Shown here in pieces: positions 11,028-20,834 of a stretch of DNA of 64,000 nucleotides; the first letter of the stretch is position 1, and each line of letters opens with the position of its first letter. Below the pieces are notes generated by a model. That model saw nothing but the letters and a program-made list of their open reading frames with translations. It was not told the origin of the DNA and did not search any database. The translations under genes were made by a program, and so were the position numbers. Source of the DNA: an uncultured candidate division Zixibacteria bacterium (GTDB lineage Bacteria > Zixibacteria > MSB-5A5 > UBA10806 > 4484-95); NCBI GenBank assembly GCA_963668625.2, contig CAXXKA010000008.1, forward strand, positions 1,088,001 through 1,152,000, written 5' to 3'.

Positions 11028-12002
11028 ATGCCCCAAAATATCAACGCCCGTGAGGATTATATATCCCGCATAAATAAAGTGATGGACTATATCGAGGCCA
11101 ATCTCGATAGCGAATTACAGCTTAACGAACTGGCGAAAGTAGCTAGTTTCTCGCCATTCCATTTTCATCGCATTTTTAAAGGTATGGTCGGTGAGACCTT
11201 GCGAAATTACATTCAGAGATTGAGGGTTGAGAAAGCCGCTAACATGCTTCTGTTAATGCCGAAAAAATCGATCACCGAGGTTGCTTTGGATTGCGGTTTC
11301 GCATCCTCGGCTCATTTCGCGCGGGTGTTCAAGGAGACCTATGGTGTGAGCGCCAGCAAATGGCGTGAGGGGGGGTATAGCAATTTCAGAAAAACGGATG
11401 GCAAGGATAATCAATCATTGAGCAAGACCGTGAAAGAAACATCCGATATAGACAGTTATCTTGATCCAGTAACATCTAACATAATATGGAGGATTAAGAT
11501 GAGTGGCAAAAGCAATCTGGAATTGAAAGTGGTGGTCAGGGATATAGAGGATATACACGTTGTCTATATCAGGCATACCGGGCCGTATAAAGCCGATGAG
11601 GCCCTGTTCCAGCGTCTGTTCATGAAACTGGCGCAATGGGCGCAGCCGCGAGGGTTGTTCTCGCCGGAGACAAAGTCATTAACAATCTATCATGATGACC
11701 CGAATATCACCGATGAGGAGAAACTCCGGATAAGTGTCTGTTTCAGTGTGCCTGAGGGCACCGAGGTTGATGGCGAGATCGGCAAGACCACGATCAAGGC
11801 GGGCAAATACGCAGTTGCCAGTTTCGAGATCGGCTCCGACCAATTCGAGGAAGCCTGGACCTCGGTATACAGCGACTGGTTACCTCAAAGCGGCTATCAA
11901 CCGGATGACCGCCCGTGTTTCGAGCTTTGTCTCAACGATCCCAGGACGCATCCCGAGGGCAAGCATATTGTCGATATCTACGTGCCGGTCAAGCCGCTGT
12001 AG
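11028..12002 (+). CDS. AraC-family regulator with C-terminal GyrI-like ligand domain
   Basis: LAKVASFSPFHFHRIFK; ITEVALDCGFASSAHFARVFK; RHTGPY...YHDDP...WLPQSGYQPD. Confidence 0.93.
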   Translation: MPQNINAREDYISRINKVMDYIEANLDSELQLNELAKVASFSPFHFHRIFKGMVGETLRNYIQRLRVEKAANMLLLMPKKSITEVALDCGFASSAHFARVFKETYGVSASKWREGGYSNFRKTDGKDNQSLSKTVKETSDIDSYLDPVTSNIIWRIKMSGKSNLELKVVVRDIEDIHVVYIRHTGPYKADEALFQRLFMKLAQWAQPRGLFSPETKSLTIYHDDPNITDEEKLRISVCFSVPEGTEVDGEIGKTTIKAGKYAVASFEIGSDQFEEAWTSVYSDWLPQSGYQPDDRPCFELCLNDPRTHPEGKHIVDIYVPVKPL

Positions 12003-12025
12003 ATATTCGCTTGAGATGAGTACAG

Positions 12026-12059
12026 GTGTCAGGATGAAAGCGAGGCGACATCCTGACAC
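12026..12059. terminator. hairpin between convergent genes
   Basis: GTGTCAGGATG-N12-CATCCTGACAC, a perfect 11-bp inverted repeat. Confidence 0.6.
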
Positions 12060-12097
12060 AGTTTTAATTCCGGGCATCAAACCGATACAATGACAGG

Positions 12098-12580
12098 TTA
12101 TCTTACCGAATCCTTACTGAAAATGTAACCGGCGTTGCGACGGTATTTGCCATCCTTACGAGTCATCATTTTCTCCATGATGAATTCCCGACGCACGAAA
12201 CAGAAATCCTCGTGGTATTTCAGGATTATCTCGTTTACCTCTTTTTCGGGGTAGACACGATTGAACTCGAAATCCTTGAGTATGAATTCGAGAATGTATT
12301 TCCTTTTCTTGCGTTGCGCCGGCAAAGTCTGGAAATAGCCGTCAACCATGAAATTATTAACTACCTTCTTACCGGGATCGGCTTGAGATTTATTGGAATG
12401 CTTTTCCAACCACTGAATTAGATCCGATTCCTTGATCCGCCAATCCTTACCGATTTTATAACCCGGTATCTCTCCGTACTTTAGCTTACGTGAAATGACC
12501 TGCACATTCATTTTCAGTAATTCAGCAACCTCGGTAGTGGTGTAGAATTTGAGTTCCGGCGTATTGTCCAATTCGTTCAT
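12098..12580 (-). CDS. excisionase-type HTH fused to a DUF2087-like domain
   Basis: YTTTEVAELLK...GEIPGYKIGKDWRI, then LPAQRKKR...YPEKEVNEII..HEDF..VRREFI. Confidence 0.8.
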   Translation of the reverse strand: MNELDNTPELKFYTTTEVAELLKMNVQVISRKLKYGEIPGYKIGKDWRIKESDLIQWLEKHSNKSQADPGKKVVNNFMVDGYFQTLPAQRKKRKYILEFILKDFEFNRVYPEKEVNEIILKYHEDFCFVRREFIMEKMMTRKDGKYRRNAGYIFSKDSVR

Positions 12581-12629
12581 TTATTCCTCACTATTATTCA
12601 CTATTGATCATTATATCATTCTTTAGTGT

Positions 12630-12657
12630 ATTATAATGTATTTTGCAGTATTATCAA
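12630..12657 (-). promoter_or_regulatory. sigma70-type promoter of the HTH-DUF2087 gene
   Basis: TTGATA-N16-TATAAT on the minus strand, ending ~10 bp outside the IS left end. Confidence 0.5.
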
Positions 12658-12721
12658 GTGTTTTGTTGGTGGTGTCCTTATTTGAAATTCTCGCAGACTG
12701 AACAAATGTTCAGGAGGTAAG

Positions 12722-13035
12722 ATGCTTGATTATAAACCGGAAAAAAAGAAAAATTTTTTCCACCATTAGATAAGGGGATAAAGACATATGTCTTAATTTT
12801 GCGTGATAATGGAGTTGAAACCTATGAATCGTGTGAAGGAGGTGAAGGCCATGCGTTTCCAGAACCAACGATTCGATTTGATGGCGAATATTATGCTGGT
12901 TTTGAAGCTCTTGCGATTGCTTTGGCTTATAATCTACCAGTCTCGGAACTAAGAAGGGTCTATTCTATAGATAACGGTGAACCAACTGGGCCGTGGTGGG
13001 AGCTGACCTTCACCCCTACCACAGATTTGATTTAG
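12722..13035 (+). CDS. small passenger protein with TYW3-like motif; the RBS-linked start needs a -1 shift
   Basis: AGGAGGT RBS and ATG 12722; A_AAA_AAG at 12742-12748 leads into the frame encoding FFPPLDKGIKTYVLILRDNGVETYESCEGGEGHAFPEPTIRF. Confidence 0.6.
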
Positions 13036-13199
13036 TGCTTGTGTTTATGACCGGATTTTTGACATTCCTTGCAAAGACGTTTTCCGCCTTTCCCGGGTGT
13101 CATATTTCTATCTTCAATGTTATTGCCGGTTGTACAGTTTGTGTCATTGTGGTAGACATTAGTTTGTTGTTTCGAGTGCCAGGGTTTCTTTTTAGCCAT
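13032..13199 (-). CDS. 55-aa small putative Zn-binding protein (below ORF-track cutoff)
   Basis: AAGGAG RBS; MAKKKPWHSKQQTNVYHNDTNCTTGNNIEDRNMTPGKGGKRLCKECQKSGHKHKH with an H-x4-C...CxxC ligand set. Confidence 0.75.
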   Translation of the reverse strand: MAKKKPWHSKQQTNVYHNDTNCTTGNNIEDRNMTPGKGGKRLCKECQKSGHKHKH

Positions 13200-13234
13200 G
13201 ATTTGCTCCTTTTTTGATTGGTTCTTTGAAAATA

Positions 13235-13620
13235 GAATTTTAAGCGACCCAATGGCGATACGGCTTTTCTTTCCCCCGTGTCCTCAAGTGTTTTTCGGTT
13301 CCTCATACGAGACCTGCCGAAGCGCAAAAGAGGGGAGCTCTCTCGTAAAGTATCGCCTGCAATATCCTGTTAAGGACCATCGTTATTAAGGTAACGTAGT
13401 GGGGCCATCTGAGGCGACCTAAACCAACAATGTCGGTTCGGTTCGTGTCATCCGGTTATCCCTTCTTGCATTTATGGGTCTTTTCCACCCCGTGTTTACG
13501 AGACCTAATTATCCTTAACTAATTAGGTAGTGCCTTGGGGGCGTCCAAAAATTTCCTAAAAACATCACCTATCCTTTCGGGAATGAGTTGAAGGTTATTA
13601 ACGGATGCCCCTTTCGGGGT
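13235..13620 (-). ncRNA. candidate structured non-coding RNA downstream of the transposase
   Basis: No convincing ORF; GAAA and UUCG tetraloop hairpins on the minus strand and several nested 7-8 bp helices. Confidence 0.4.
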
Positions 13621-13621
13621 T

Positions 13622-14434
13622 CTATATCAAAATCTCCTGCCAATTACCAAAACGAGTTGTAATGCCTGCGGCAATTGCAGGGGTTGTTTTTAGTGTTCTA
13701 TGAAGCCTTATAAAGTTGTAGTGCCAGAAGTGAAGTGCTAAGGCCGCCTTTAAATTAGCTAATTTCTTTGAAAATGCAATAGTTAATCTATTCAATCGTT
13801 TCATATAGGTTCTCATGGTAAGATTCTGCCTTTCAATATAAGACGTGCAAATCTTGTCAGGGTCAGGGTTTCCGCATATTATACTTATATCAATATCCTT
13901 TAATCGTGATGGGCTATAGCCCTCTCTTTTTATATTACCGTCACTGTGATAGCGTTTCGATAATTGGGCATAATGAATCATTGTACCGAATGTCCAGAGA
14001 ACAGCACCAGTATAGCCGTTAAAGCCGTCTGTGGTTAATTGAAAGTTCGGTTTTACACGCCGTTTTAATTGTCTCATAAACATATAGGCGTAATCTGAGG
14101 TTCTTTGACCGACTAAATATAGCGGGACGAGTTTAGTGTCTCTATCCATAGCGACATATACATAATGACTGCCGAGTCCGTCACTATCCCACGGCTTTAC
14201 GTTTGTTTGTTTCTTGCCTACATACGTCCAGATTTCATCACACTCTAAATGCTTACATTCTAAATCGTGAAAACATTGACTCATGTAGTAGAGGCAATTT
14301 TCCCCTGCACTAACCATTAATCGCATAATAGTATCCCTGTGAACGCCTGTGATGCGTTCTATGCCCCGTATGCTATTGCCCTCTACCAGTAAATTCAAAA
14401 TCATTTCCTGTTTTTCTGTTTTAAGTCGGTTCAT
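13622..14434 (-). CDS. IS1-family DDE transposase (single ORF with N-terminal HTH)
   Basis: LLVEGNSIRGIERITGVHRDTI HTH; CDEIWTYVGKK, TTDG, IERQNLTMR..KRLNRLT.AFSKK, HYNF; in-frame upstream ATG at 14479. Confidence 0.9.
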   Translation of the reverse strand: MNRLKTEKQEMILNLLVEGNSIRGIERITGVHRDTIMRLMVSAGENCLYYMSQCFHDLECKHLECDEIWTYVGKKQTNVKPWDSDGLGSHYVYVAMDRDTKLVPLYLVGQRTSDYAYMFMRQLKRRVKPNFQLTTDGFNGYTGAVLWTFGTMIHYAQLSKRYHSDGNIKREGYSPSRLKDIDISIICGNPDPDKICTSYIERQNLTMRTYMKRLNRLTIAFSKKLANLKAALALHFWHYNFIRLHRTLKTTPAIAAGITTRFGNWQEILI

Positions 14435-14444
14435 GGCTTTTCCC

Positions 14445-14554
14445 TTGACTATTTGAGCGGGAAAGCCGATAATTAACATGGTTCGACTAAGCGGCTCACC
14501 CCGCTTGGTTGATACTTACCCGTCCCGATGTGACCGCATCGGGCGGGAGTTTTT
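14445..14554 (+). ncRNA. antisense sRNA unit 1 with own promoter
   Basis: TTGACT-N17-GATAAT (14445-14473), hairpins CGACTAAGCGG/CCGCTTGGTTG and CCCGATG/CATCGGG, then a T-run. Confidence 0.6.
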
Positions 14555-14559
14555 AAGGG

Positions 14560-14591
14560 GGATAGCCTATCGGAAAACCGACAGACTATCC
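14560..14591 (-). promoter_or_regulatory. 14-bp RNA hairpin in the transposase leader
   Basis: GGATAGTCTGTCGG-TTTT-CCGATAGGCTATCC is fully paired (two G-U) only on the minus strand. Confidence 0.55.
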
Positions 14592-14603
14592 AGAAAAAAA
14601 TAT

Positions 14604-14696
14604 TTAAGTTTTTATAGGTGGTGGCGGGCGTGGTATAATTAGGCAAGTTTTTAAGAAAACACTTGCCAAACCAATGTAATTATTGTATAATAACAT
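14604..14696 (-). CDS. putative 30-aa leader or toxin-like peptide MLLYNNYIGLASVFLKTCLIIPRPPPPIKT
   Basis: GGAAGGGG RBS-like sequence before ATG 14696; hydrophobic core then RPPPP; RBS overlapped by antisense sRNA 2. Confidence 0.4.
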   Translation of the reverse strand: MLLYNNYIGLASVFLKTCLIIPRPPPPIKT

Positions 14697-14760
14697 CACA
14701 ATCGAACCCCTTCCAAAGGGTTTAAAGTTGGCCGGACTGCTGCAATCAGTTCGGCTTTTT
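14663..14760 (+). ncRNA. antisense sRNA unit 2 with own promoter
   Basis: TTGCCA-N17-TATAAT (14663-14691), hairpins GAACCC/GGGTTT and GGCCGGACTG/CAGTTCGGCT, then a T-run. Confidence 0.65.
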
Positions 14761-15184
14761 AATTGTTAGGTTCTTGCGAACCAGCAACGTCAGGCCTTAA
14801 TGCCTTATAGAGGCCTACATCAACCTTCTCGATCTTTTTGCCCTTGACCAAGTTACTAAGCATGGCAAACATAGCCCCTTCAAAGCTTTTGGCTGTAGAT
14901 TTATAGCCTTTTCTTAGTACTATTTGCCTGATTTGTTTAGCCCTTAATGATTTAGGGTAAACTTCTGTCAGGGTTTGGACAACATAAGATCCTAAAGACT
15001 GAGGCGTGCTATTATCGGTTGTAAGGTCAAAAGTCTCGCCCTCTGTCTCAACATTTAGGGGGATTTGCCCTTGATACCTATTAAGCATACGCCTAACTGC
15101 CTCTAAGTCAGCGTTTAACGCCTTGATCTGTTGCGTTAAGTCTTGTTCAATCTTTTGTAGGTTTTGTACAATTTCTTTACTCAT
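14759..15184 (-). CDS. passenger protein: coiled coil plus winged helix-turn-helix
   Basis: LQKIEQDLTQQIKALNADLEAVRRML coiled coil; SLRAKQIRQIV...AMLSNLVKGKKIEKVDVGLYKA wHTH-like; ATG 15184 preferred over 15319. Confidence 0.65.
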   Translation of the reverse strand: MSKEIVQNLQKIEQDLTQQIKALNADLEAVRRMLNRYQGQIPLNVETEGETFDLTTDNSTPQSLGSYVVQTLTEVYPKSLRAKQIRQIVLRKGYKSTAKSFEGAMFAMLSNLVKGKKIEKVDVGLYKALRPDVAGSQEPNN

Positions 15185-15257
15185 ACCCCAAATATAACAT
15201 AAATGATTCTGGAACACAAGTATTTTTTTAAGAAATCTTGGTTTTTCTTGCATTAGT

Positions 15258-15293
15258 GTGGGTTTACTTGTGGGTTTACTTGTGGGTTTACTT
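15258..15293. repeat. 3 x 12-bp tandem repeat GTGGGTTTACTT
   Basis: Three perfect copies plus a degenerate fourth, ~35 bp inside the IS end. Confidence 0.9.
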
Positions 15294-15590
15294 ATGGGTA
15301 TGTTATTATCTATAGACATATATAGCCTCTTTTGTTTTTAAATTAGGTAAAAGAAAGGAAAATAAAATTGAGGAATTAAAAATGAAAAAAAAGAATAAGA
15401 AACTGACCTTTCCTGGTTTCCAAGCGCTGCTTGGAAACCTTCTTGAGTTATGTAGAATACGCATTCTGCAGGCAAACAAGCCATGTTACGAAGCAGCGCC
15501 TCTCAACGAGATGGAAAGACCAGACAGTAGTGATGTACAAATTTTATCGAAGTTAGGATTCCCAGATTATGTCCCAATCCCCCTTTCAGC

Positions 15591-15617
15591 CGTAACTTAT
15601 CCTCCGGCCTTGCGTAT
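15591..15617 (+). promoter_or_regulatory. ECF-sigma-type promoter upstream of the ABC transporter
   Basis: CGTAACT-N15-CGTAT; same spacing as three other sites. Confidence 0.5.
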
Positions 15618-15657
15618 CATTTTATGTGTCAGTTACATAATAACTTAATAATACCGT

Positions 15658-16350
15658 ATGGACGCGATGAGCAATCCCTGGATCAAGATAGAGAACATAT
15701 CACGGCATTATAAACGAGCCAGATCAACCGTGCGAGCCCTGGATGGCGTTTCGATTGCCATAAAACGCGGTGAGTTCGTGGCCATTGTCGGCTCCTCGGG
15801 CTCGGGTAAATCCACGCTTCTAAATCTGATAGCCGGACTCGATCATCCCACCGCCGGTAGTATCATCCTCGATGGCCTCGACTTGAACGATCTAACACCG
15901 CGCGCCAAAGCCAGAATCAGGGCCGAGAAAATCGGTATGGTGTTCCAATCGTTTAACCTTCTGCCGCAACACTCGGCGATAATGAATGTCGAGATGGCCC
16001 TGTATTTCGATAAGATGCCCCGGCATAAACGTCACGGGAAAGCTCTCGAGACTATGGAGAAACTGGGCCTGGCGGAGCGTTTAAACCATCGCCCGGCAGA
16101 TTTATCCGGCGGCGAACAACAGCGGGTGGCATTCGCCAGGGCGCTGGTGAAATCACCGGAGCTGCTTCTGGCGGATGAGCCAACCGGCAATCTCGATAAG
16201 GATAACTCAGCGATAATCATGGGATTAATGAAAGAGCTTAATTCCGGCGGGCAAACTATTATCATGGTAACGCACGACTTGAAATCGGCGGAGCAGATCG
16301 CCGACAGGCTTATAAGATTAAATTACGGAAAACTTTCCGAGGATAGTTAG
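15658..16350 (+). CDS. ABC transporter ATP-binding protein (LolD/MacB type)
   Basis: GSSGSGKS Walker A, LSGGEQQRV signature, LLADEPTGNLD, VTHD. Confidence 0.95.
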   Translation: MDAMSNPWIKIENISRHYKRARSTVRALDGVSIAIKRGEFVAIVGSSGSGKSTLLNLIAGLDHPTAGSIILDGLDLNDLTPRAKARIRAEKIGMVFQSFNLLPQHSAIMNVEMALYFDKMPRHKRHGKALETMEKLGLAERLNHRPADLSGGEQQRVAFARALVKSPELLLADEPTGNLDKDNSAIIMGLMKELNSGGQTIIMVTHDLKSAEQIADRLIRLNYGKLSEDS

Positions 16351-16363
16351 AGGATATAGCGGT

Positions 16364-17833
16364 ATGACTTTCAGAGATTTAGTCGAGCTGTCGTTTTCCA
16401 ATCTCTACCGGACAAAACTTCGCACCCTGCTAACCGTGAGTGGCGTCATTATTGCTATATCAACATTTACGGCTATGATCTCGTTCGGCGCGGGCAATCA
16501 GCAACTGGTCAACGATACGTATAAGGATCTGGGCTTATTTACCAGTATGAAAGTTTACCCTATAGAATCCCCCGCCGAGGGTGATTCTATCGAACCGGGC
16601 ATACTTAATAAAGAGGCCGTATCGGAACTGGCTAAAATTCCGGGAGTTGTTTTAGCATATCCGTTCGTGGATTTCACCGTCACCGCCGGAGTGCTAGACA
16701 CCCAGATAACGAGCGAGGCGCGGGCTTTGCCGGTGGAGGCGCTCGATACTCCGATTATGCGAAAACTTCTCAATGGTTATGCGTTTTCCTCCGATTCGGC
16801 TAAAGAGGCGATAGTCACCCCGGCGTTCATCGAAAAGCTAAATACCGAATATCCCGATTCACTGATAGGCAAGGAACTGATCGTATCGCTTCAAATAGCC
16901 AGCCTCGATTCGGCTCTTATAAATGTTCTGGATGATAACGAAACCACATTATACGATAGATTCGAGGCTCTCGATCCCGATTCACTTCTGTATATGAAAT
17001 ATATCAGGCGAGTTGCCAGGCAGGAACTCGGCGAGGGAATCAAACGGTTAATCGATGGCTTTTTCAACCGCACCATGACAGTTGCCGATACCCTGACGAT
17101 AGTCGGGATAGGCGAAAAACAGCGTCAACGCCAGTTTACCCTTTCACCTATTGTCATGCCTGAGCGTACGGCCAGACTGTTGACCACCGCCGGTTTCGGT
17201 ATCGGAAACGACCCGCTTTCGCTTTTCGAGGCGATGAGAAGCGGCGAGTTTTTTCCGTCTGACGGCTCGGAGCGTGATGAGACTTATCCTCGGGTTACAT
17301 TGGAACTAGATCCGTATGTTTCTTACGAGGGCATTAAGGATTCTGTCGAGGCGATGGGATTCCGGGCGTTCAGTTATGCCGAGGAGTTCAAGGAGATACA
17401 GCGGTTCTTTCTGTATTTCAACGCTGCCCTGGGTGTTGTCGGTTTAATCGCTTTGATGACCGCCTCGCTGGGGATCATCAATACCCTGTTGATGTCCATA
17501 AACGAGCGCCGTAAGGAGATAGGTATTCTTCAATCGCTAGGCGCTTACCGCACCGATATATGGGTGATTTTCCTGTCGGAGTCGGGGGCCATCGGTTTTG
17601 CCGGGAGCGTATTCGGCATAATTTTCGGCTGGCTGGGTACACGAGCGATGGCATTCGTATTAAAACTTATAATGGAGAATGAGGGGATTCCGGTAGTCGA
17701 TCCGTTCGCGTTACCATTCTGGCTTATCGGTTTATCTATGGTTTTCGGGATTTCGGTCAGTATTCTTGCCGGCTTATACCCGGCAGCTAAAGCCGCCCGG
17801 GTGGATCCTGTAGAGGCATTGAGAGGCGAATAG
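16364..17833 (+). CDS. ABC transporter permease (MacB/FtsX family)
   Basis: KLRTLLTVSGV; GIINTLLMSINERRKEIGILQSLGA; GLYPAAKAARVDPVEALR. Confidence 0.92.
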   Translation: MTFRDLVELSFSNLYRTKLRTLLTVSGVIIAISTFTAMISFGAGNQQLVNDTYKDLGLFTSMKVYPIESPAEGDSIEPGILNKEAVSELAKIPGVVLAYPFVDFTVTAGVLDTQITSEARALPVEALDTPIMRKLLNGYAFSSDSAKEAIVTPAFIEKLNTEYPDSLIGKELIVSLQIASLDSALINVLDDNETTLYDRFEALDPDSLLYMKYIRRVARQELGEGIKRLIDGFFNRTMTVADTLTIVGIGEKQRQRQFTLSPIVMPERTARLLTTAGFGIGNDPLSLFEAMRSGEFFPSDGSERDETYPRVTLELDPYVSYEGIKDSVEAMGFRAFSYAEEFKEIQRFFLYFNAALGVVGLIALMTASLGIINTLLMSINERRKEIGILQSLGAYRTDIWVIFLSESGAIGFAGSVFGIIFGWLGTRAMAFVLKLIMENEGIPVVDPFALPFWLIGLSMVFGISVSILAGLYPAAKAARVDPVEALRGE

Positions 17834-17837
17834 TCGA

Positions 17838-18521
17838 TTAATGTTTGGCGTGATGTTTATTTTTTGATTTGGGTTTATCCTTAAACAGCTTATCGTAAAT
17901 ATCAGGGTATAACTGCTCGGCGCAATCGGGGCATATGCCGTGACTGAATTGAACATCTGAATGGTCTTTCACATAAACCTCGACCTCGCTCCAATAGCCG
18001 TCATCATCCCTTACTTTCTTACAGTTGGCACAGATGGGCAGGAGGCCGCTGAGTATTTTAACATCCTCGAGCGCCTTGCTTAGCCGCGTATTCTTGTCTT
18101 TAAGCTCGTCTCTTTGACGGCGAATTTCCTTGTACGAGTCAGCCAGCATTAGAATGGAACGCACGCGAGCCATGATTTCTATTTTATCTATTGGCTTACG
18201 AATGAAGTCAACCGCGCCCGCCTCTAAGGCGGTTCGAAGGTTTTTGGAGGAGGTCATTACACCGCTGGCAACGATGACCGGGATGCTTTCGGTGATACTG
18301 TTTTTCTTGAGATTGATGATAGCCTCGATACCCGACATCCCCGGCATCTCCCAATCGGTGATAATCAAATCGGGAACGATTTTTTCGGCAAGTTTATAGC
18401 CCGATTCGCCATCGGTTGCCTGGTACATCTTGTAAGGCTCGCCGGTTTCCTCCAAATGATTTACTATAATTTCGATATTTATCGGTTGATCATCGATAAT
18501 CAGTATTTTGCGCTCATCCAT
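17838..18521 (-). CDS. response regulator with C-terminal Cys-rich (Zn-finger-like) domain
   Basis: ILIIDD, LIITDWEMP, FIRKP receiver motifs; LLPICANCKKVRDDDGYW...FSHGICPDC. Confidence 0.9.
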   Translation of the reverse strand: MDERKILIIDDQPINIEIIVNHLEETGEPYKMYQATDGESGYKLAEKIVPDLIITDWEMPGMSGIEAIINLKKNSITESIPVIVASGVMTSSKNLRTALEAGAVDFIRKPIDKIEIMARVRSILMLADSYKEIRRQRDELKDKNTRLSKALEDVKILSGLLPICANCKKVRDDDGYWSEVEVYVKDHSDVQFSHGICPDCAEQLYPDIYDKLFKDKPKSKNKHHAKH

Positions 18522-18536
18522 AAATCTAACTCTTAT

Positions 18537-20834
18537 CTACGCCTTTATTAATTTTTTGTAGCTGTCCTTGTTATTAGTGTATACCGCCTGGTGTATTTTA
18601 TCTTTCCATGCCTCCAGGGCGATACTTTCATTGGTATTGATCTGCCTCAGCGTTTTGCGAAGATCGCTTATTTCGTAAATTTCCAACTCTCTGAATTTTG
18701 CGAGGTACTTGTCGAGAAGAATCTTTTCATCATTACTAAACTCTATATCGGTATTCTCAACCGATGCTGGAGTAGGTTTGGCGGCGGAGGCTTTATCCGA
18801 CAGGCTAACAGTGAACCAGAAAGTGGTCCCCTCGTGAGGCCTGGATTCGATCCAAATTCGTCCGCCGTGCGATTCGATCGCCATTTTACAGAATGTGAGA
18901 CCCAGGCCGGTAGAGCGTACCTTACCGGCCTGTTTGGGAGCGACCTGTTGAAATTTCTCGAATACTTTCTTTAAATTATCCTCGTTTATACCCTCACCGT
19001 TGTCGCTTACCGAAACTTTCACCCGGTCACCCTCGACCGCAAGTGAGTCTAACACTATGCGGCCGTTCTGGGGTGTGTATTTAATCGAGTTGGTGAGAAG
19101 ATTTACGAATACCCTTTCGATTATATCGTTATCAACACTTACAGTTAAATTATTCGCGATATTGTTATCTATCGTTATACCTTTCTCGTGGCTAAGGAAA
19201 TTTATCTGCTTGATAGCGTTCACTCCGACTTGATACAAATTGATATCATTTATCTCGAGATTCATCTTGGAATCCTCGAATTTCTGGACATCCAGAATAT
19301 TAGTCACCATGTTCAGCATTTGAAGAGAAGCCTGGTAGATAATATTTTGTGAAATATTTTCACGTGCCTGGGAATAGTTGAGTATGGCGCCCAGTGGATT
19401 TTTCAAATCATGAACGATCATTCCGGTCATGGCCTCTTTGAACCTGTCGAGCTCGATAAGTTTATCGTTAGCCGATTTTAATTCGCCGGCCTGTTTTTCA
19501 ATCTTGGCTTTTTGCTTATTCAACACCCGGTTAGCTTTTTTCTTACCGTTATATGCCCTGATTACGAATACCGCGAACCCGATCATCAGCATTAAACCGA
19601 TTCCGATCGAGAACGTGAGGGTGCGCTGCTTGTTGATAGTTGCCTGCTGAACTTCTTTTTCTTTGCGAAGTAGCTCGTTTTCCTGTTCTTTTTTATCGGT
19701 GTCGTATTTGGTTTGCATGTCGGCTATCTTGTTGCTGCTTTTCTCGTTGAAAATCGAATCTTTCATGGCCGTGTATTGTTTATAATATTGCAGCGCGTTT
19801 TCAAAATCCATCTGGTCGGCGCGAAGTTTTGAGAGGCAATCGTAGTTTTCCATTAGCATATCTTTGGCGCCGATTTCCAACGAATAAATCAGGCTCTGGT
19901 TCAAGTATTTGGACGCTTCCTCGTAATTTTGAAGGCGGCGGAAAAGATCACCGATATTATTCGTGGTTATGGATAGGCCATAAGTATCCTTAAGCTCCAT
20001 CTCGATTTTAAATGATTCGAGGTAATGAGTAAGAGCCTGATCGTGATCTTTTAAATCATCATAGGCGTAGCCGATATTCAGTAGAGCGTCACCAATGCCG
20101 AATTTGTCATTGATTTTGCGATTCAACTCCAAGCATTCATGATAGAACATTAGCGCTTTATGATAGTCTTTCTCCTCGGAATATACGTTGCCTAAATTAT
20201 TGAGACACAAAGCCGCGCCGGAAGAGTCGTTTAAAATCTGGAACAGGTTCAGTGATTTTTTATAGTAATCCAGCGCTTTATCGTTTTTACCCAATATATT
20301 ATATATAGTGCCGATATTTACGAAAGAAGCCGCTATACCGCTGGTATCGTTGATTTCCTCATATATTTTCATTGATTGAAGATAATATTGGAGGCCTGTA
20401 TCATACTCATCCCGATCCAGGTAATTTACACCGATATTGTTCAAGACATTCGCCTCGCCCTCTTTGTTATCGATTGCCTGGTAGATTTGTAACGCTTCAT
20501 CGTAATAACGAAGGGATTCCTTGATTTTATACATATTGGAATATCCAACGCCGATATTTTTGCGAGCCGTCGCTTCACCCATCTTGTCATCGCAGCGAAG
20601 CGCCAACTCCAGCGCCTGATAGCCATATTCTATTGTTTGTTCGGTTGAAATGCTCCAGGAGGCCCGGGAAAGATCGTTGAGGATTTGTACTTTTTCGGTG
20701 CCATCTACGATAGGTAATAACCTTCGCAGGCTGTCTGCCACACTGTGGGCCGATATAGAACCCATCAGAAGAAATGTCATTACTATTACGGTTATAAGAT
20801 GTTTCATCAAAGAAGTATCCTGACTATTCAACAA
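18537..20834 (-). CDS. TPR-repeat sensor histidine kinase
   Basis: Signal peptide, many TPRs (NNIG.Y), TM, H-box IVHDLKNPL, NLLTNSIKY, DNGEGI, STGLGLTFCK; start may be 20807. Confidence 0.92.
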   Translation of the reverse strand: MLNSQDTSLMKHLITVIVMTFLLMGSISAHSVADSLRRLLPIVDGTEKVQILNDLSRASWSISTEQTIEYGYQALELALRCDDKMGEATARKNIGVGYSNMYKIKESLRYYDEALQIYQAIDNKEGEANVLNNIGVNYLDRDEYDTGLQYYLQSMKIYEEINDTSGIAASFVNIGTIYNILGKNDKALDYYKKSLNLFQILNDSSGAALCLNNLGNVYSEEKDYHKALMFYHECLELNRKINDKFGIGDALLNIGYAYDDLKDHDQALTHYLESFKIEMELKDTYGLSITTNNIGDLFRRLQNYEEASKYLNQSLIYSLEIGAKDMLMENYDCLSKLRADQMDFENALQYYKQYTAMKDSIFNEKSSNKIADMQTKYDTDKKEQENELLRKEKEVQQATINKQRTLTFSIGIGLMLMIGFAVFVIRAYNGKKKANRVLNKQKAKIEKQAGELKSANDKLIELDRFKEAMTGMIVHDLKNPLGAILNYSQARENISQNIIYQASLQMLNMVTNILDVQKFEDSKMNLEINDINLYQVGVNAIKQINFLSHEKGITIDNNIANNLTVSVDNDIIERVFVNLLTNSIKYTPQNGRIVLDSLAVEGDRVKVSVSDNGEGINEDNLKKVFEKFQQVAPKQAGKVRSTGLGLTFCKMAIESHGGRIWIESRPHEGTTFWFTVSLSDKASAAKPTPASVENTDIEFSNDEKILLDKYLAKFRELEIYEISDLRKTLRQINTNESIALEAWKDKIHQAVYTNNKDSYKKLIKA

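Follow-up and report, generated by a model that had tools for sequence, protein, structure and literature searches.

Insertion sequences (IS) of the IS1 family are recognised by inverted repeats with a GGnnnTG tip and by a target duplication of 8-9 bp. Subgroups with a single open reading frame (ORF) and subgroups carrying passenger genes exist within the family, and control of IS1 is thought to rest on a translational frameshift together with repression by InsA. Here we describe an element of this family in a stretch of 64,000 nucleotides, referred to as the window, from an uncultured candidate division Zixibacteria bacterium (assembly GCA_963668625.2, contig CAXXKA010000008.1, positions 1,088,001 to 1,152,000). 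Positions below are those of the window, and homologous loci and genomes from our comparison are labelled L and G, respectively.

Several described systems resemble parts of this element. Transporter IS (tIS) hold passenger genes inside their inverted repeats, and these genes move with the transposase, as the relevant passages of PMC9330008 describe. In IS200, the small RNA (sRNA) art200 lies opposite the 5' untranslated region of tnpA, according to PMC4513863, and RNA-OUT of IS10 is presented in PMC5006887 as an antisense control of the transposase. Furthermore, PPP motifs stall ribosomes unless EF-P rescues them, and the stall is modulated by the upstream sequence context (PMC4176338). EF-P also maintains the coupling of transcription and translation, as stated in PMC5021804.

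Identity, ends and spread of the element

From 12668 to about 15355, the window probably contains one copy of a transporter IS of about 2.69 kb, with a conserved core, one damaged end and a putative control by RNA and a leader peptide. The copy genuinely belongs to the IS1 family and is of the transporter type, and both of these assignments in the initial annotation were borne out. Its transposase (13622-14434, minus strand; 270 aa) matches Pfam PF03400 (DDE_Tnp_IS1) with 37.2 bits against a cut-off of 24.1, and NCBIfam NF033558 (transpos_IS1) with 74.1 bits, which is below the equivalog cut-off of 100. The residues D66, D136 and E201 are invariant in 13 aligned transposases. The programmed -1 frameshift that joins insA and insB' in classical IS1, and the InsA zinc finger, were not found; the protein is encoded by a single ORF that starts at its N-terminal helix-turn-helix (HTH) domain, and a zinc-finger extension occurs only in another clade (L004, L035). 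Two genes without a role in transposition, encoding a microprotein and a member of a family of about 97 aa, are both located between the repeat at 12668 and the transposase.

Homologues of the transposase are numerous. In total, 7,797 of the 8,000 scored candidate proteins matched at E <= 1e-3. The nearest non-self protein is 69% identical, and one of the closest proteins (68-69%) is encoded on a contig of 2651 bp. Within the phylum, 30 of 285 genomes, including the window's own, have a homologue at E <= 1e-40.

The ends of the family were found by comparing the cargo-distal flanks of the window and L044. A de novo search for inverted repeats near the transposase (gapless and Smith-Waterman) had given no result better than chance for the window and 14 relatives, as it stayed too close to the transposase gene. 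We then scanned the transposase-bearing loci for the 15-mer of the repeat at <=3 mismatches. Both ends were present at eight distinct places (L044, L045, L046, L003, L052, L035, L025 and L050, the last being the same place as L016), where perfect direct repeats of 8 bp flank the element (TTTTCAAG, GAATGGAA, CAACAAAG, AAAATTCT, GGGAGTCG, ACTTGCCT, GGTAATCT and CCAAATTG). A ninth element, of 4,224 bp, is located on a plasmid of Hoeflea sp., with GGTAGTGTCTCAGTTTGAA repeats and the duplication GATGATTG. Hence, both repeats and a perfect 8-bp duplication occur in all nine elements for which both ends were found, with lengths of 2810-4224 bp. Most other loci were covered by flanks of 1.5 kb only, and several showed one end only. 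As judged from these ends, the family is one of DDE transposition with 18-bp inverted repeats (GGTAGTGTCCTAATTTGA, starting GGTAGTG with the GGnnnTG tip), 8-bp target duplications and a length of 2.8-4.2 kb. The genes between the duplication-bounded repeats vary among relatives. In L045, the cargo (491-1464) is a SocA/Panacea antitoxin-domain protein (E 7e-12) beside an ORF of 101 aa, likely a toxin-antitoxin passenger.

The window has an intact terminal inverted repeat at the transposase-distal end, GGTGGTGTCCTTATTTGA (12668-12685, plus strand), with the GGnnnTG tip. It differs from the family repeat at two positions and is the sole match to that repeat in the whole window at <=4 mismatches. 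The left border proposed earlier, at 12668 with GTTTTGTT as its flank, was therefore exactly right, since an intact family repeat starts there.

As read from the sequences compared, the core order in the orientation of the transposase is repeat, coiled-coil/winged-helix gene, sRNA2, leader ORF with a LARPPP motif, hairpin, sRNA1, transposase, variable cargo and repeat. In the window this corresponds, on the minus strand from 15355 down to 12668, to a gene of 141 aa, a hairpin at its stop codon, an ORF of 31 codons, a GC-rich hairpin, two further hairpins, the transposase, a spacer of about 420 nt and a protein of 55 aa. In the closest relatives (transposase identity 52-65%), the features 5' of the transposase are arranged colinearly with those of the window, and the accessory gene, its terminator, the leader motif, the hairpins and promoter P1 are all visible in the 8-11 closest loci. 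The parts named in the initial annotation (transposase, winged-helix gene, RPPPP ORF, hairpin, promoters, terminator and microprotein) are thus all present, whereas its right border, its structured region and its TYW3 label did not hold.

Both the transposase and the DNA of 12600-15400 map to one place each in the 4.3-Mb genome, where the pattern of the terminal repeat has fewer matches (4) than a reversed control pattern (17). Further copies had been suggested as a source of comparison, but with a single copy no comparison within the genome could be made. The window copy is most likely stranded and probably immobile, because one repeat has lost its outer 8 bp and the duplication, and because the copy is unique in its genome. 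Its transposase and RNA core are intact. No contig joint that skips the element was seen in three DNA runs of one sample with contigs at about 3.5x, a result that is neutral on excision. A search of Rfam returned nothing at E <= 1 across 11500-16500.

The region upstream of the transposase

A conserved cis-antisense unit, with its own predicted promoter and terminator, was found opposite the 5' region of the transposase. Promoter P1 (TTGACT-17-GATAAT; 14445-14473, plus strand) is antisense to the transposase, with its -35 box 11 nt from the transposase start codon. It precedes sRNA1 (14477-14556, plus strand), a predicted antisense RNA of about 80 nt with two hairpins, of which the second is an intrinsic terminator (stem 14519-14547, T-run 14550-14554). 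The T-run after this second hairpin is present on the antisense strand only. In an alignment of 12 sequences (A4), which includes a remnant from G013, the hexamers and the 17-nt spacing of P1 are conserved; by eye, they are also present in the zinc-finger clade.

The structure of sRNA1 is conserved more strongly than expected by chance. RNAalifold predicted 23 pairs on the strand antisense to the transposase, and 11 of these have compensatory double changes among the 12 sequences. Paired cells amount to 92.4%, against 81.2% in shuffles, and none of 500 shuffles reached the observed value for four of five measures; slid controls gave 31-46% of cells paired. There are 50 G-U cells against 3 C-A cells. 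Pairing is found in 255 of 276 cells on the antisense strand and in 208 of 276 on the transposase-sense strand, a comparison that is somewhat biased, the structure having been predicted on the strand later favoured. All 23 pairs are intact in the window copy.

A covariance model of sRNA1 (R1) recovered 10 training loci among 151 genomes. It also matched five loci of the zinc-finger clade that were not in its training set (E 3e-5 to 4e-7), each time on the strand opposite the transposase, and three new sites (E 1e-7 to 3e-10) without a transposase within 1.5 kb. These three sites, L094 (G197), L095 (G075) and L096 (G141), have kept sRNA1, the hairpin, the LARPPP leader and sRNA2. L094, with the microprotein gene where a transposase would be expected and the winged-helix gene on the other strand, looks like a deletion relic.

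Between sRNA1 and the accessory gene lie a hairpin and a leader ORF. Hairpin 1 (14560-14591) is GC-rich, and its structure is kept while its sequence varies; by eye, it is seen at the equivalent position in eight loci of the main clade (the window, L044, L045, L047, L048, L049, L051 and L052). The small RPPPP ORF that had been noted is indeed present at 14604-14699 on the minus strand, where it comprises 31 codons and ends in PRPPPPIKT. The family consensus L-A-R-P-P-P is encoded in nine of the 29 sources scanned (the window, L044, L047, L048, L051, L052, L025, L094 and L096). Across these, the codons for Arg (CGC, CGT, CGA, CGG, AGA) and Pro (CCG, CCC, CCA) differ synonymously only, which is the signature of a translated peptide.

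Unlike the window copy, some relatives have one or two tRNA genes or tRNA-like sequences on the transposase strand, in the interval from the leader region to the transposase; in some, a tRNA gene separates hairpin 1 from sRNA1. Rfam identified tRNA in L059, L068, L035, L063 and L056, and ARAGORN in L045, L050, L056 and L059. Some ARAGORN calls are odd, with a tRNA-Ser(gct) of 74 nt and with anticodons that are undetermined or of 4 bases, and by eye some anticodon loops would read UAA.

The accessory gene (14759-15184, minus strand) encodes 141 aa from Met46 of an ORF of 186 aa, with an N-terminal coiled coil and a C-terminal winged helix. Its earlier description as a winged-helix gene agrees with an AlphaFold2 model and a Foldseek search: the protein folds as a long helix (2-40) followed by an H-H-H-beta-beta domain with a pLDDT of 70-87 (mean of the model 70.6), and every top match in Foldseek, though weak (best E 0.011), is to a winged-helix domain. 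Genes of like architecture, encoding proteins of 130-146 aa, are present at the equivalent position in L044, L045, L047, L048, L049, L050, L051 and L052, and the protein of L049 matches HARE-HTH (E 3e-6).

A second predicted antisense unit is found at the 3' end of this gene. Promoter P2 (TTGCCA-17-TATAAT; 14663-14691, plus strand) has 11 of 12 promoter matches, and sRNA2 (about 14698-14761, the unit as a whole spanning 14663-14761) ends in a terminator with a 10-bp stem (14730-14756) followed by TTTTT to 14761, which abuts the stop codon of the winged-helix gene. A consensus scan thus located both of the plus-strand promoter units that had been annotated (P1 at 14445-14473; P2 at 14663-14691 with the terminator at 14730-14761). 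In relatives, the sRNA2 hairpin is likewise located at the stop codon of the accessory gene, with the T-run on the antisense strand only. A promoter with at least 9 of 12 matches is present at the equivalent position in 6 of 11 loci, all six with a T-run terminator after the stop of the accessory gene. The small-RNA units, the RPPP leader ORF and the winged-helix gene are carried by homologues of the element too, which supports the initial annotation.

Three tandem copies of a 12-nt unit, TGTGGGTTTACT (15257-15299), separate the accessory gene from the damaged end. In a long ORF call they would be translated as a PTSK repeat, but most likely they do not code for protein; they could serve as binding sites for proteins.

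These features make an antisense regulation of the transposase plausible. A long sense transcript would start upstream of the leader ORF, and the transposase would be read from it; this transcript probably crosses the leader region, because the leader ORF, and the tRNA genes in sister clades, are on the sense strand upstream of the transposase. sRNA1 could pair with the 5' leader of the transposase mRNA, at about -43 to -124, and lower the transposase output, by analogy with art200 of IS200 and RNA-OUT of IS10. Because sRNA1 leaves the start codon uncovered, its effect would proceed via processing, structure or termination rather than via occlusion of the start. sRNA2 would be complementary to the junction of the accessory gene and the leader ORF, and sRNA2 and its terminator would counteract transcription that runs on from the accessory gene. 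The RPPP leader might tie expression of the transposase to ribosome clearance of a polyproline stall, and in this way gate read-through to the transposase. The winged-helix protein may be a DNA-binding co-factor or a repressor.

Several observations weigh against this reading of the element. The RNAs sRNA1 and sRNA2, the sense leader transcript and the leader peptide are all predicted from sequence alone, and the strand comparison of sRNA1 carries the bias mentioned above. sRNA1 at 14477-14556 does not overlap the ribosome-binding site or the ATG (14432-14434) of the transposase, so that a block of initiation as in IS10 is not expected. A consensus scan gave no convincing sense promoter for the window transposase, the sole candidate being a 9/12 match at 14716-14687. 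The accessory proteins are only 11-16% identical, and their homology hence rests on position and architecture. Furthermore, a clade with 41-47% transposase identity lacks sRNA1 and instead has a sense promoter that abuts the ATG. R1 had no match there (41-47% loci other than L070 and the zinc-finger loci), and several of these loci have one or two tRNA genes upstream. Finally, 26 of the 30 positive genomes have one match to the transposase and four have two, which is unusual for an active IS, though draft genomes lose repeats.

In the 41-47% clade (L055, L056, L057, L059 and L061-L069), a TTGACA-17-TATATT promoter ends 8-10 nt before the ATG, with an inverted repeat in the promoter spacer. This suggests that the transposase mRNA of that clade is leaderless or near-leaderless.

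The two promoter-terminator units could also act as insulators, where convergent transcription and termination, and not base pairing, would shield the transposase from read-through originating outside or in the accessory gene. We regard this as unlikely, although some features would fit: both units end in strong terminators that work in the antisense direction only, with an A-tract 5' of each hairpin on the sense strand; sRNA2 has kept its promoter and terminator while its sequence is not conserved; and sRNA1 avoids the start codon. However, hairpin 3 of sRNA1, which is not a terminator, shows covariation as strong as that of the terminator hairpin (double changes in 6 of 12 pairs), and this argues for a functional RNA body. 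The insulator and base-pairing readings are not mutually exclusive.

The antisense reading can be extended to a dedicated switch that senses RNA and translation. In such a switch, the polyproline leader, the two convergent antisense sRNAs, the winged-helix partner and, in sister clades, the tRNA genes would tie the transposase to the translational state of the host (EF-P or tRNA supply), and the element might also target the promoter-proximal site at the DUF2087/HTH_17 gene described below. We consider this extended version quite unlikely.

It is very doubtful that the GGTGGTGGCGGGCGTG motif (14617-14632) is a DNA site, that is, an internal end-like sequence bound by the transposase, rather than the coding sequence of RPPP. 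The motif, which is the RPPPP-coding DNA read on the plus strand, has GGTGGTG and its orientation in common with the terminal repeat at 12668, whose tip it resembles, and in several relatives the leader ORF has no convincing start codon. Across the nine loci, however, the variation is at third codon positions and includes changes from CGN to AGA, as fits a constraint on the peptide and not a binding site, while the CCNCCNCCA pattern is kept in relatives whose repeat tip is GGTAGTG. The resemblance to the repeat tip may be fortuitous, or the motif may be an internal end-like site; together with the opposite end, GGTGGTGGCGGGCGTG would bracket a unit of about 740 bp that holds sRNA2 and the winged-helix gene.

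Insertion site, damaged end and cargo

The adjacent gene encodes a protein with HTH_17 and DUF2087 domains (12098-12580), and its promoter (TTGATA-16-TATAAT) is located at 12657-12630 on the minus strand. The intact end of the element lies 10 nt from the -35 box of this promoter, and the target octamer GTTTTGTT (12660-12667) flanks the element on the outside, 10 nt upstream of the same box. The gene is kept in relatives without the element. In G176 (L046), the family repeat abuts the equivalent position (...ACC|(C)AACAAA...) in the same orientation as in the window, with a perfect CAACAAAG duplication and a transposase that is 61% identical (tblastn). In G013 (L022), the family repeat is present at the equivalent position in the opposite orientation, with an internally deleted transposase; this opposite orientation at the same site points to repeated insertion rather than inheritance. 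G001 has a degenerate repeat-like sequence at the site upstream of its DUF2087 gene. An empty site had been proposed as a check on the borders. In an alignment of the regions upstream of DUF2087, G021 has an uninterrupted, empty-site-like sequence, GCAACAAAATCCTTTACAAT, that maps to the left border. The same-genus genomes G001 and G002 gave no empty site, being too divergent (about 50% identity in the neighbouring permease) and not syntenic.

Altogether, insertions about 10 nt upstream of the DUF2087 -35 box were seen in at least three genomes, with transposase remnants nearby in a fourth (loci L046, L022, L008, L009 and L023). The alignments confirm the left border and suggest a preferred insertion target upstream of DUF2087/HTH_17 genes, and repeated insertion at one promoter-proximal site hints at a target selectivity that is unusual for the IS1 family. 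The other eight duplications have no obvious consensus.

Such recurrence might also indicate domestication, with the transposase, the winged-helix protein and the RNAs kept as a host regulatory or site-specific cassette by the DUF2087/HTH_17 gene. In the window, G176, G013 and G011, no more than about 1 kb separates the DUF2087 gene from the transposase or its remnants; most positive genomes (26 of 30) have a single copy, and transposase-less modules persist in three genomes. Moreover, the transposase ORF and sRNA1 (23 of 23 pairs) have remained intact in the window despite the damaged end. We nevertheless find domestication very unlikely: perfect duplications and repeats at nine unrelated sites speak for recent mobility of the family, the distribution is patchy (30 of 285 genomes), the cargo varies between copies, and the opposite orientation in G013 indicates repeated insertion.

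Of the element's second inverted repeat, a remnant of the inner half, TTAAATTAGG, is found at 15338-15347 (plus strand); the outer 8 bp and the duplication are gone, and the original end would have been at about 15355. The window has a single copy of AAATTAGG, and shuffling the 470-nt candidate region would produce this sequence in 1.7% of cases. Both position and orientation of the remnant are as in relatives: it lies about 150 nt upstream of the accessory gene, and the repeat of relatives lies 100-550 nt upstream of theirs. No fuller second repeat was found at <=6 mismatches in 12000-20000, nor a second copy of GTTTTGTT at the damaged end.

The initial annotation had placed the right border and a 9-bp duplication here. 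Both 9-mers exist (TGTTTTGTT at 12659 and TCTTTTGTT at 15328) and match at 8 of 9 positions, but the match is no better than chance: 14% of shuffled versions of the 470-nt region yield a 9-mer match with <=1 mismatch, and there is one more copy, the third, at 14929. The proposed border and duplication are off by about 20-28 bp, as TCTTTTGTT (15328-15336) is inside the element, next to the true repeat remnant. Dissimilar ends had also been taken as a trait of the subgroup. As judged from the relatives, they are damage to one end and not a lineage trait, because the nine relatives have near-perfect 18-bp inverted repeats with perfect 8-bp duplications and the window keeps the inner half only.

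It is therefore most improbable that the element is intact at 2660 bp (12668-15327), with naturally dissimilar ends and a TGTTTTGTT/TCTTTTGTT duplication: although GG starts both proposed ends, the left repeat and the proposed right terminus, GGCTATATATG..., have about 7 of 18 positions in common (counted by eye), and the inner half of the family repeat follows the right 9-mer rather than preceding it.

Three stretches lie between the transposase and the intact end. The first, at 13200-13621, is an orphan spacer in which no conserved RNA or gene was found. The spacer had been described as a structured region of 400 nt, which its folding does not support (minus strand, z = -1.37; plus strand, z = -2.89). 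Among 284 other genomes of the phylum, a single marginal match of 37 nt was found (E 8e-4), and the spacer is absent from L044, L047 and L003, where the repeat or the microprotein gene directly follows the transposase. The claim of an RNA cargo is hence abandoned, as there is no conserved RNA cargo downstream of the transposase.

The second stretch is a microprotein gene (13032-13199, minus strand; 55 aa). A word search returned only the protein itself, while a HMMER profile search placed it in a family without a name, in which E <= 1e-3 is reached by 560 cluster representatives and E <= 1e-10 by 39. The description as a Zn-ligand microprotein is reasonable, because all of 26 sequences have C22, C43 and C46, and at least 90% of them have H17. 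L044 has a homologue directly after the transposase, and another is found in L094, the relic that lacks a transposase.

The third stretch, on the plus strand, is a frame-split cargo gene (12723-13035) of a family of about 97 aa with the motifs SCEGG-GH ... GPWWELTF; the ORF annotated initially covers 12799-13035. It has 781 homologues at E <= 0.01, and the best 120 of these are 60-74% identical, mostly 94-110 aa long and all without a Pfam domain. The window sequence that aligns with the N-termini of the homologues (PPLDKGI) precedes the called start and is in a different frame from the ATG at 12723; an A7-G-A5-T6 run separates the coding frame from this ATG and its Shine-Dalgarno sequence (12723-12800). 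The frame change is either a mutation, making this a pseudogene, or a homopolymer assembly error at about 3.5x. The TYW3-like label was not upheld, as no Pfam or NCBIfam match was obtained at E <= 0.1; the lead to TYW3 (PF02676) is limited to an Atlas score of 0.84 for a different protein, an ORF of 154 aa in L044. A 'SCEGH' cargo common to the window and L044 was rejected (BLASTP E 6.8).

Just outside the element, a repeat of about 125 nt is found at 15409-15533, with an imperfect internal palindrome and no Rfam match. It has at least 41 matches (40 of 143 candidates scored), including the window copy and one at 78%; the other 39 are at 89-93%. In the source metagenome, contig depth at this repeat sums to more than 200, compared with about 3.5 in the flanks, and contigs are interrupted at the repeat. 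That this repeat is a miniature inverted-repeat transposable element of the window IS was rejected, as the genome has 4 matches to the pattern of the terminal repeat of the family and 17 to a reversed control pattern.

Comparison with known systems

Our literature search on IS1 passenger genes, tIS and IS1 antisense RNA did not find the architecture of the window described, ISfinder and TnPedia not being part of the comparison, and nothing was found under the name 'ISMhu11'. Likewise, the literature searched gave no link between polyproline leader peptides and control of a transposase. The conserved regulatory core, with its helper gene, proline-rich leader and two predicted small antisense RNAs, thus appears to be new, in that we did not find it described for the IS1 family. 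It appears that a widespread environmental lineage of the family is regulated by a different architecture. More than 7,000 homologues of its transposase were detected, and cultured Alphaproteobacteria have related elements on their plasmids. If true, such an architecture would represent a novel means of restraining a DDE transposase and would provide compact natural examples of antisense and leader-peptide control. For annotation, the repeat GGTAGTGTCCTAATTTGA and an 8-bp duplication delimit these elements simply.

The element shares with tIS that passenger genes lie within the inverted repeats, as in the passages of PMC9330008 cited above. It differs in that the winged-helix gene and the RNA units are conserved across the window lineage and look like machinery of the element, whereas only the distal genes vary.

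With art200 and RNA-OUT, as portrayed in PMC4513863 and PMC5006887, the predicted sRNA1 has in common that a cis-encoded, terminated small RNA is located opposite the 5' region of the transposase mRNA, with its promoter inside the element. In contrast to these RNAs, sRNA1 would lie 43-124 nt upstream of the start codon without covering it, and the window lineage has a second antisense unit and a leader ORF further upstream. The leader resembles known polyproline sequences as a short upstream ORF with R-P-P-P, a stall-prone class according to PMC4176338; PPP is conserved at the peptide level in nine loci, and a stall is predicted.

The likeness to the IS1 family comprises the DDE_Tnp_IS1 match, an HTH that precedes the catalytic core, repeats that start with GGnnnTG, both of them in the nine relatives and one in the window copy, and the 8-bp duplications of relatives. 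Compared with IS1 itself, which is about 0.8 kb long, elements of the window lineage measure 2.7-4.2 kb. They have a single transposase ORF without the insA/insB' frameshift and, in the window clade, without a zinc finger, and they add a conserved upstream winged-helix gene, a polyproline leader ORF and two predicted antisense promoter-terminator units.

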